Shown: in pieces, positions 18,832 to 20,809 of the stretch
How the letters are laid out: every line of letters starts with the position of its first letter
Position numbering within the stretch: the stretch's first letter is position 1
Source of the DNA: Acidobacteriota bacterium
Lineage (GTDB): Bacteria > Acidobacteriota > Thermoanaerobaculia > Multivoradales > UBA5704
DNA length: 28,555 nucleotides
Direction: 5' to 3'
Assembly (NCBI GenBank): GCA_040005235.1
Contig: JBDTZG010000063.1
Coordinates: 1-28,555, forward strand
Translations under genes and position numbers: made by a program
Notes under the pieces: generated by a model
What the model was told of the DNA's origin: nothing
Databases searched by the model: none
What the model saw: only the letters and a program-made list of their open reading frames with translations

Positions 18832-20601
18832 TCAGACCGCGGCCAGCAGCTCGGTATTTTCCGGGGTCCGCGGGGTCCCCGGGGTTTGCGCGGGCGGCTC
18901 GACCCGCTTCCTGCCGAGCTGCGCCGCGAGGTCGGCAAAGCCTTCGAACGTGAGGCTCTGGGCGCCGTCCGAAAGCGCGTGATCGGGATCGGGGTGGACT
19001 TCGACGATCACCCCTTGGGCGCCCGCCGCGAGACCGGCATGAGTGAGGGCCGGGACGATCGACCGCAGGCCGGCGGCGTGGCTCGGATCGACGATGACCG
19101 GCAGGTGGGTTCGCTCGCGCACGATCGCCACGGCGTTCAGGTCGAGGGTGTGGCGGGTCGCCCGCTCGAATGTCCGGATGCCCCGTTCGCACAGGACGAC
19201 CTGGTTGTTGCCGTGGGCCAGGATGTACTCCGCCGCGTGCAGCCACTCGTCGATCGTGGCGCCCGCGCCGCGCTTCAGCATCACGGGCTTGCCGCTCCGG
19301 CCGGCCGCGCGCAGCAGCGCGAAGTTCTGCATGTTGCGCGCGCCGATCTGGAGCATGTCGGCATAGCGGGAGACGAGCGGCACCTCTTCCCAGCTCATCA
19401 CTTCGGTCACCACCGGCAGGCCGGAGATCCGGCGCGCCTCGGCGAGGATTTTCAAGCCCCGCACGCCGAGCCCTTGGAAATCGTAGGGCGACGTGCGCGG
19501 CTTGAACGCGCCCCCTCGGAGCATGTCGGCCCCGGCCGCCGCGACCGCGCGGGCGGTGTCGAGCAGCATCTCCTCGCTTTCGACCGAGCAGGGACCGGCG
19601 ATCAGGATCGGCGTGCCGCCGCCGATTTCGAGCGAGCCGATGCGGACGATCGAGTCCTCCGCCTGGTAGCGCCGATCGAACAGCGGAAATGCGGGTTTCG
19701 GCCGGTGGTTCGGTCCCGAGCCGGTCGCTCCGTGCGCGGGGGCATCTAGGTTGGAGGAGGCCGGTCCCTGCCAGGCGAGATAGCTGCCGAGCACGACGAG
19801 CTGGTTGGCCAGCGCCTCGATCGCCTCGATCGCCTCGGCCACCAGCGGCTCGCGCGCCGCGCCTTGGATGTCGATATAGAAGCGATAGGTCCAGGGTGCG
19901 GAGCGCTCCGGCCGCGATTGGAGCGCGGTCAGGTTGATGCCGCGGGTCGCGAACGCCTGGAGCACGGCGGCGAGCATGCCCGGCCGATGGTCGGTCCAGA
20001 CCACCAGCGAGGTCTTTCGCGGCCGGTCGTCGAGCACCTCGGGCTGGGGATCGCGGGTGAAGGTGAGGAAACGGGTCTGGTTGGTCGGGTCGTCCTCGAT
20101 CCGGTCTTCGAGCACCTTCAAGCCATACAGCTCCGCGGCTAGAAGCGAGCCGATCGCCGCTTCGGAAGGATCGGCGTCGCGCGCCACGATCTCAGCTCCC
20201 CCCGCCGTGTCCCATTCGCTCACCCGCTGCACTCCGGGCAGATTCTTGCTCAGCCAGATGCGGCACTGATCGAGGGCGACGGGATGCGAAAGGACGCGGC
20301 GAATCTGCGTCACCGTGGCCCCTGGAACGCCGAGCAGCGCGTGCTGGACCGGCAGCAAAATCTCCCGATCGAGGTGGAGCGCATGATCGCGGAACGCCTG
20401 CTGCAAAATGTCTTCGGTGGTTTCGACCAAGCCGACCAGGGAGTTTTCAAACGGCAGGCAACCGGCGTCCGCCTTGCCGTCGCGCACCGCTTCGACCACG
20501 TCCGCGACGGTGCGGAGGGGGAGCAGCTCCAAGTCGGGCCACTGTTTGCGGGCCGCGGCTTCGCTGAATGATCCGCGCGTACCCTGAATCGCTACTCGCA
20601 T
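18832..20601 (-). CDS. Fusion of prephenate dehydratase, ACT domain and type I-beta DAHP synthase
   Basis: PDT: [19 protein letters not shown]; ACT: RPGML...[10 protein letters not shown]; DAHPS: [44 protein letters not shown]. Confidence 0.93.
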
Positions 20602-20637
20602 CCGATCTCTCCTCGGCTGGCCTGATGAATCAGCGCC

Positions 20638-20676
20638 AAAAACAAAAGCGCCCCGCCGTTTCCGGCGGGGCGCTTT
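20638..20676 (-). terminator. Intrinsic terminator (attenuator) in the leader of the PDT-DAHPS gene
   Basis: mRNA AAAGCGCCCCGCCG-GAAA-CGGCGGGGCGCUUUUGUUUUU, 36 nt upstream of the start codon. Confidence 0.88.
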
Positions 20677-20704
20677 CAGGTTCGGTCTCGCGGGAACTAG
20701 TCCT

Positions 20705-20770
20705 TTAGCCGAACGCGGAAGCCCCCGCGCAACGATACGTAAAGGAGTAGTGCCAACGGAACGTGATCAT
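20705..20770 (-). CDS. Attenuator leader peptide [21 protein letters not shown]
   Basis: 21-aa ORF with F4, W6, Y8, F10, Y12, F20, ending 28 nt before the terminator stem. Confidence 0.8.
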
Positions 20771-20779
20771 GGGACGGGG

Positions 20780-20809
20780 AGTATTGGGGCGGTCTGCGGG
20801 AAAAGTCAA
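20780..20809 (-). promoter_or_regulatory. Candidate promoter for the leader/PDT-DAHPS transcript
   Basis: TTGACT (20809-20804), 18 nt, AATACT (20785-20780); leader ATG follows 9 nt later with no SD. Confidence 0.5.

Follow-up and report, generated by a model that had tools for sequence, protein, structure and literature searches.

Upstream of a gene for a prephenate dehydratase (PDT)–ACT–DAHP synthase fusion, the DNA carries a real, conserved and uncatalogued leaderless attenuator, a classical control device whose mechanism is textbook. We place it, almost certainly correctly, among the ribosome-mediated transcription attenuators; this assignment draws on its parts, their conservation, their pairing potential and the position of the switch, and from these we infer the transcription start, translation, termination, stalling and the amino acid responses. 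The original prediction for the window (the whole stretch of 28,555 nucleotides that was analyzed) had recognized a trpL/pheL-type geometry, and the leader, the terminator, the mutually exclusive antiterminator and their conservation bear this out. The features are as follows.

20780 to 20809, minus strand: sigma70-type promoter; −35 TTGACT at 20809–20804, 18-nt spacer, −10 AATACT at 20785–20780
20705 to 20770, minus strand: leader ORF of 21 amino acids; ATG at 20770, 9 nt past the −10 box, and TAA at 20705; no Shine-Dalgarno sequence; apparently leaderless or nearly so
20735 to 20761, minus strand: regulatory codon block F4, W6, Y8, F10, Y12; F10 is TTT at 20743–20741, the invariant anchor codon
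20697 to 20750, minus strand: predicted protector (anti-antiterminator); codons 7 to 11 would pair with the stop codon region (20707–20697), closing a hairpin over segment 2
20709 to 20728, minus strand: antiterminator 5' side (segment 2); GCGGGGGCTT at 20728–20719 and GTTCGG at 20714–20709
20665 to 20685, minus strand: antiterminator 3' side; CCGAAC at 20685–20680 and AAGCGCCCCGC at 20675–20665, the latter shared with the terminator 5' arm
20638 to 20676, minus strand: intrinsic terminator; 14-bp stem, GAAA loop and U tract, with the stem-loop at 20676–20645
20609 to 20614, minus strand: Shine-Dalgarno sequence GAGGAG of the enzyme gene, identified from sequence
18832 to 20601, minus strand: regulated gene, 589 amino acids; prephenate dehydratase (residues 3–184), ACT (198–262) and type I-beta DAHP synthase (about 304–562)

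A conserved aromatic-rich leader ORF close behind its promoter

The predicted 21-residue ORF, with F4, W6, Y8, F10 and Y12 at every second position, is present between 20770 and 20705. TTGACT/AATACT is the sole promoter-like match within 1 kb (shuffle mean 0.1), and an ORF of this composition is rare: genome-wide, 23 of 17,980 short ATG ORFs (15–35 amino acids) have at least five aromatic residues in nine codons, and among the 112 short ORFs lying 33 to 41 nt behind a TTGAC in the same genome the leader is the only aromatic-rich case.

We looked for the leader upstream of related enzymes, keeping the best 80 of 552 stretches, among which the closest named relatives are Thermoanaerobaculia (85–98%) and many are Gemmatimonadota (∼60–74%). 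Once three duplicates, one fragment and one locus of the genus whose contig ends inside the gene had been dropped, 81 loci were examined: the window, five loci of the same genus that include upstream DNA, and 75 of those best 80. The leader recurs in 78 of them as a TTGAC followed 35 to 39 nt on by an ATG or GTG that opens an aromatic-rich ORF of 21 to 29 codons. By eye, L059 and L069, which are among the three exceptions, carry the leader behind a variant −35; in the third (L108) the stretch examined is coding sequence. Alignment upstream of orthologous fusions had been proposed as a check, and here the start codon, the frame and the aromatic block are kept in 78/78, Phe is universal, and indels before the anchor codon come in multiples of three. 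Because these loci are kin and not independent, counts over the 78 leaders represent conservation and not 78 separate tests.

The promoters of all 78 leaders have a 17- to 18-nt spacer and an xAnnnT −10 box, and the start codon follows the −10 box by 5 to 9 nt (6 nt in 53). No SD-like word was found on inspection of the sequence upstream of the ATG at 20770; among the homologues such a word precedes 2/78 leaders versus 77/78 enzyme genes. Since a start codon 5 to 9 nt past the −10 box falls where established sigma70 geometry would begin the transcript, and since SD-like words are so unevenly distributed, the leaders of most homologues, as read from sequence, are leaderless and that of the studied genome almost so, in keeping with the near-leaderless translation originally proposed.

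Terminator, antiterminator, and predicted protector

The perfect GAAA-loop terminator was found as described: AAAGCGCCCCGCCG-GAAA-CGGCGGGGCGCTTT forms 14 perfect pairs (20676–20645) and is followed by a U tract reaching 20638. The leader fold has z = −4.0, with 0/200 shuffles equally good. When the terminator 3' arm was withheld in the fold, codons 15 to 21 paired with CCGAAC and the terminator 5' arm, reproducing the proposed exclusive antiterminator. The early-transcript fold, at −30.0 kcal/mol, gives the predicted protector a pairing probability of 0.89 in the studied leader; this probability exceeds 0.5 in 23/78 homologues. In attenuators of this class, a protector or pause hairpin keeps polymerase and ribosome in step.

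The stem covariation named as a check in the original prediction was found in part. Terminator columns are paired in 94.3% of cells and contain nine double-sided changes (0/500 shuffles; covariation score 34/500). The inner antiterminator helix was scored by motif, because the MAFFT alignment loses register near its partner, and it contains the swaps C-G/U-A (64/6) and C-G/G-C (56/9), with the partner chosen as the best match. The outer antiterminator helix is paired in 93% versus 40 to 64% in slid controls, but no compensatory change was found in it across the homologues.

At equilibrium, the naked nascent RNA (no ribosome) favors the antiterminator (0.88). We therefore rejected equilibrium folding as a full model of the switch: with the antiterminator favored even without a ribosome, the off state depends on ribosome passage or on folding kinetics. 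The same preference, together with the lack of an SD sequence before the ORF, could be taken to mean that the ORF is untranslated and that the element is a constitutively leaky terminator or an RNA switch controlled by a protein or ligand. We consider this very improbable: the retention of start codon, frame and aromatic block in 78/78, the multiple-of-three indels, and an ORF start placed where the transcript would begin all argue for translation, and Rfam gave no riboswitch or T-box hit at threshold (14 matches with E values up to 10, none at its gathering score and none a T-box).

The aromatic codons end where the switch is predicted to flip

We modeled stalled ribosomes by blocking the RNA for 12 nt from the A-site codon and folding the remainder at equilibrium. 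Over the 78 leaders, antiterminator pairing averages 0.85 when the stall is at the anchor Phe, 0.60 one codon later, 0.30 at +2, and 0.11 at +3, so that in these models stalls up to the anchor keep the antiterminator, which collapses three codons later. The both-state folding suggested as a check thus gave the expected pair of outcomes, and, going by the fall in pairing between the anchor and +3, the aromatic block ends at the modeled flip point of the switch. Pairing falls by 0.5 or more in 70/78 real leaders versus 12/348 spacer shuffles, and the studied leader's own drop of 0.84 is matched by 0/40 of its shuffles. F4, W6, Y8, and F10 lie within the predicted sensing interval for footprints of 9, 12, and 15 nt; Tyr12 sits at its edge, with stall values of 0.86, 0.62, and 0.00, respectively.

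The anchor Phe codon is present, in frame, without exception (78/78). It is TTT in 76/78 leaders and is followed by A, mostly in a Thr codon, while TTT makes up 19/180 of the earlier leader Phe codons and ∼18% of Phe codons in the genome. The TTT preference could reflect wobble-slowed decoding or pairing. It could also be read, with the protein-level conservation of F-T and of a G-A-A stretch, as the mark of a TnaC-kind arrest peptide whose ligand in the ribosome tunnel would be a free aromatic amino acid or some other compound, tRNA charging then not being the signal. Several observations make this reading hardly credible. The G-rich antiterminator strand dictates the residues past the anchor; single-base deletions past the anchor Phe in L089 and L090 alter the C-terminal leader peptide with the RNA helices retained; the residues before the anchor vary freely except for being aromatic; and a biosynthetic gene with a stall that predicts read-through fits starvation sensing.

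Probable amino acid inputs

We scored amino acid classes over the first 16 codons. Among the 78 leaders, 38 contain Phe, Trp, and Tyr, 28 contain Phe only, 11 Phe and Tyr, and 1 Phe and Trp; in the studied genus, Phe and Tyr are present in 6/6 and Trp in 5/6. On the tree, Trp changes 13 times versus 4 for Tyr, and the Phe-only/mixed label changes just three times over 74 rows. The original prediction had one leader integrating Phe, Tyr, and Trp charging. Its Phe component is supported, with Phe invariant in 78/78, but sensing of all three was not established, given the 28/78 Phe-only leaders, the 13 changes in Trp, and the position of Tyr12 on the edge of the predicted sensing interval. As judged from codon content, a response to Phe is highly probable. 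A response to Phe and to one or more of the other aromatic amino acids is reasonably probable; a Tyr response on its own is somewhat favored, a Trp response has an even chance, and a response to each of the three falls slightly short of even.

The Tyr and Trp codons might instead give no measurable response, being kept for pairing with the protector strand or as tolerated passengers, such that the leader would in practice be an attenuator for Phe alone. In 28/78 homologues, Phe-only leaders do stand before this enzyme with the gene background unchanged, the Trp codon is labile on the tree, codons 7 to 11 are predicted to pair with the stop region in the studied leader, C. glutamicum aroR offers a precedent, and theory, in the portion of PMC1183508 drawn on here, links sensitivity to many regulatory codons. 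The distribution of the codons themselves argues otherwise. At positions −5 to −1 before the anchor, Trp fills 39/390 and Tyr 60/390 codons versus 1/1273 each outside the sensing interval; TGG lies two changes from TTC and yet occurs at three offsets. This placement speaks for selection, as do the mere three changes of the Phe-only/mixed label and the three-residue leaders with different downstream RNA (L008 and L010, below). TCC and CTC, one-transition neighbors of TTC, would pair equally well, yet both are rare (8 and 5), protector pairing is not general (23/78), and in the separate his leader described below the presence of Trp codons goes with that of trp genes. We therefore regard an effectively Phe-only leader as unlikely and favor Phe with additional aromatic input.

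Three accounts of how the classes arose were examined and dropped. Joint change of Trp and Tyr on the tree offered too few independent pairs (p 0.5). Gene content did not differ in 50 genomes (24 Phe-only, 26 with all three residues; 50/74 candidate loci): trpC was present in 22/24 Phe-only versus 24/26 three-residue genomes, tyrA in 23/24 versus 26/26, and a second DAHP synthase in 22/24 versus 23/26. A quick tree nests the studied genus among Phe-only Gemmatimonadota; for an independent gain of Trp and Tyr after transfer from the Phe-only clade, monophyly of the Phe-only rows excluding the genus was not rejected by an AU test (p 0.368, 42-row subset), so that this nesting and any direction of change are tentative.

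The regulated gene

The enzyme downstream is a PDT–ACT–DAHP synthase fusion, in keeping with the proposed target, one that both opens the shikimate pathway and commits to Phe. Its domains were assigned from Pfam, with NCBIfam PRK11898 and TIGR01361 above their cut-offs; Pfam showed no chorismate mutase (CM) domain in the 589 residues. The fusion is the sole PDT match in the genome and is probably monocistronic, because the ORF map places a convergent gene next. By eye, the DNA upstream of the stand-alone second DAHP synthase (C21) and of the CM-prephenate dehydrogenase (C130) has no leader or terminator. The fusion lacks an N-terminal extension that is present in the stand-alone DAHP synthase, and the ACT domain of PDT could regulate both activities of the fusion. 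Our literature search found no publication on a PDT–ACT–DAHP synthase fusion.

Within its family, the fusion is restricted to the studied genus (36 genomes). Because of this confinement and because the enzyme groups with those of Gemmatimonadota, the sequences suggest that gene and leader were transferred together. In many Phe-only Gemmatimonadota loci (L031–L047), an ORF of ∼190 amino acids overlaps or abuts the fusion stop and is probably co-transcribed. L006 (G004) and L104 have the fusion broken in two by what looks like a frameshift, close to where PDT meets ACT or ACT meets DAHP synthase; this may be an assembly error.

Other leaders in relatives and in the same genome

Phe, Trp, and Tyr also occur together in leaders with different downstream RNA sequence in other Thermoanaerobaculia, one (L008) before a CM–PDT–DAHP synthase fusion and another (L010) before a stand-alone DAHP synthase. 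Other CM–PDT–DAHP synthase fusions have Phe-only leaders (L009 and L144), or no leader was found (L145–L150). In the 27 loci where PDT was matched and DAHP synthase was not, the sole promoter-anchored aromatic block with a terminator is Phe-only (L151). Elsewhere, an F/Y leader with terminator precedes a DAHP synthase gene followed by a PDT gene (L018/L153, G056:C46), and the leader with terminator before the stand-alone DAHP synthase (L010/L154, G016:C38) reads F/Y/W. In another family of the order, a leaderless Trp leader (…GAWWWPN*) with terminator lies before a DAHP synthase (L015/L155, G060:C2, upstream of 782407); a direct repeat of ∼130 nt occurs twice upstream of it, ∼780 to 560 nt before the DAHP synthase match.

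The studied genome also contains a his leader (L164; G000:C96 ∼13073–12855, minus strand) that ends in WRWHHHHQTSS and has a terminator-like hairpin with a U tract; the genes after it run hisZ-hisG-hisD...hisF-hisIE-trpE-trpG...trpC-trpF-trpB. It scored 26 bits against Rfam His_leader (threshold 49). Trp and His codons are present in 7/7 genomes of the genus with the hisZ locus, and a His leader was found at 13/30 hisZ loci. In the resolvable cases, the Trp codons are present in 5/5 with attached trp genes (four of the five from one genus) and absent in 2/2 without, 4/10 regions having ended too early to follow the gene run. Small as it is, the set points to a possible use of one or two Trp codons as sensors in the studied lineage.

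Relation to known attenuators

The leader is best described as a pheL/aroR-like attenuator that scores below the Phe_leader threshold; Phe is its core input, and Tyr and Trp are probable additional ones. Against Rfam RF01859 (Phe_leader), it scored 22 bits versus a gathering score of 55 (E 0.38) over the full-length alignment (1–125 of 125), which includes the UUU-AC that closes the Phe run. It works like pheL but is not a member of RF01859. With the gammaproteobacterial pheL/pheA system, as far as the passages used here describe it (RF01859; PMC3082878), it shares a short Phe-rich leader ORF, an alternative antiterminator with an intrinsic terminator, and a prephenate dehydratase target; in the same passages pheL has a Shine-Dalgarno sequence and Phe runs, whereas our leader is leaderless and mixes in Trp and Tyr. 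The target of pheL is a gammaproteobacterial CM-PDT, unlike the PDT–ACT–DAHP synthase of other phyla studied here.

The C. glutamicum aroR–aroF attenuator was reportedly described by Neshat et al. in 2014. In the excerpts drawn on, the aroR leader reads Phe-Tyr-Phe before the DAHP synthase gene aroF (PMC11802643, PMC4046766, PMC7356990); a review states that it responded to Phe with Tyr availability having no effect (PMC11802643), and another excerpt gives control by phenylalanine and tyrosine (PMC7356990). Set beside our leader by these descriptions, aroR is the nearest functional precedent, with mixed aromatic codons in a leader peptide before a DAHP synthase, and differs in the phylum, in the enzyme architecture and, as described there, in having no Trp codon. 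The novelty first implied is accordingly reduced by a published Phe-Tyr-Phe leader before a DAHP synthase.

The thrL and ilvGMEDA leaders sense several amino acids. Like ours, each is a single leader whose codons cover more than one end product of a branched pathway, but they serve other amino acids and have several codons for each, whereas the studied leader has one Trp codon. Both E. coli leaders are named as attenuators in the part of PMC1183508 used. In title-level descriptions, the SD-less actinobacterial leaders (C. glutamicum ilvB and the mycobacterial leaderless poly-Cys sORFs) share a regulatory sORF at the transcript 5' end without a ribosome-binding site, and differ in amino acids and phylum. 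Table 7 of PMC1173090, in the portion drawn on, lists putative attenuators of the terminator/antiterminator kind ahead of pheA-aroA(I-beta) operons in Bacteroides thetaiotaomicron, Thermoanaerobacter, and Thermus; these resemble ours in predicted attenuation before pheA with a type I-beta DAHP synthase and belong to other phyla, the comparison being of operons and not of leader peptide or codon content. Our literature search, which covered papers outside subscription, found no report of a Phe/Tyr/Trp leader or of leaderless ribosome-mediated attenuation in Gemmatimonadota or Thermoanaerobaculia. The comparative attenuator surveys of Vitreschak (2004), Panina (2001), and Lopatovskaya (2010) may list such leaders.

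Proposed mechanism and implications

By the geometry of the promoter and ORF, RNA polymerase would start at or a few bases upstream of the leader ATG, and a ribosome would load onto the leaderless 5' end. With ample charged tRNAs, the ribosome would clear codon 12 or 13 and cover segment 2, and the terminator would form ∼40 nt upstream of the enzyme gene. A stall at an aromatic codon would leave segment 2 free to pair with the terminator 5' arm, and the PDT–ACT–DAHP synthase gene would be transcribed. Phe-tRNA would be the core input, through the invariant TTT at the switch boundary, and in the studied lineage further, probably weaker, inputs would come from Tyr and Trp codons that share its sensing interval. 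The enzyme is most likely switched on when aromatic amino acids are scarce. Two public RNA runs gave word shares of 0.09 and 0.07, from contigs only at 85% likeness, and did not cover the leader ORF or promoter.

More tentatively, codon content alone may tune one cross-phylum leaderless scaffold between Phe-only and Phe/Tyr/Trp states, with the studied genome responding to each charged tRNA and a single Trp codon sufficing; alongside the Trp and His leader of the his-trp genes, short multivalent leaders may thus replace repressors in the control of aromatic synthesis in uncultured phyla. If true, one leader would read all three aromatic tRNAs, extending the Phe-Tyr-Phe design of aroR, and leaderless ribosome-mediated attenuation would be placed in Gemmatimonadota and Thermoanaerobaculia. 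The leader family is in any case a ready natural experiment, in which the same RNA switch and enzyme come with Phe-only, Phe and Tyr, or Phe, Tyr, and Trp leaders, so that the smallest number of codons for an amino acid that still allows sensing becomes directly testable.
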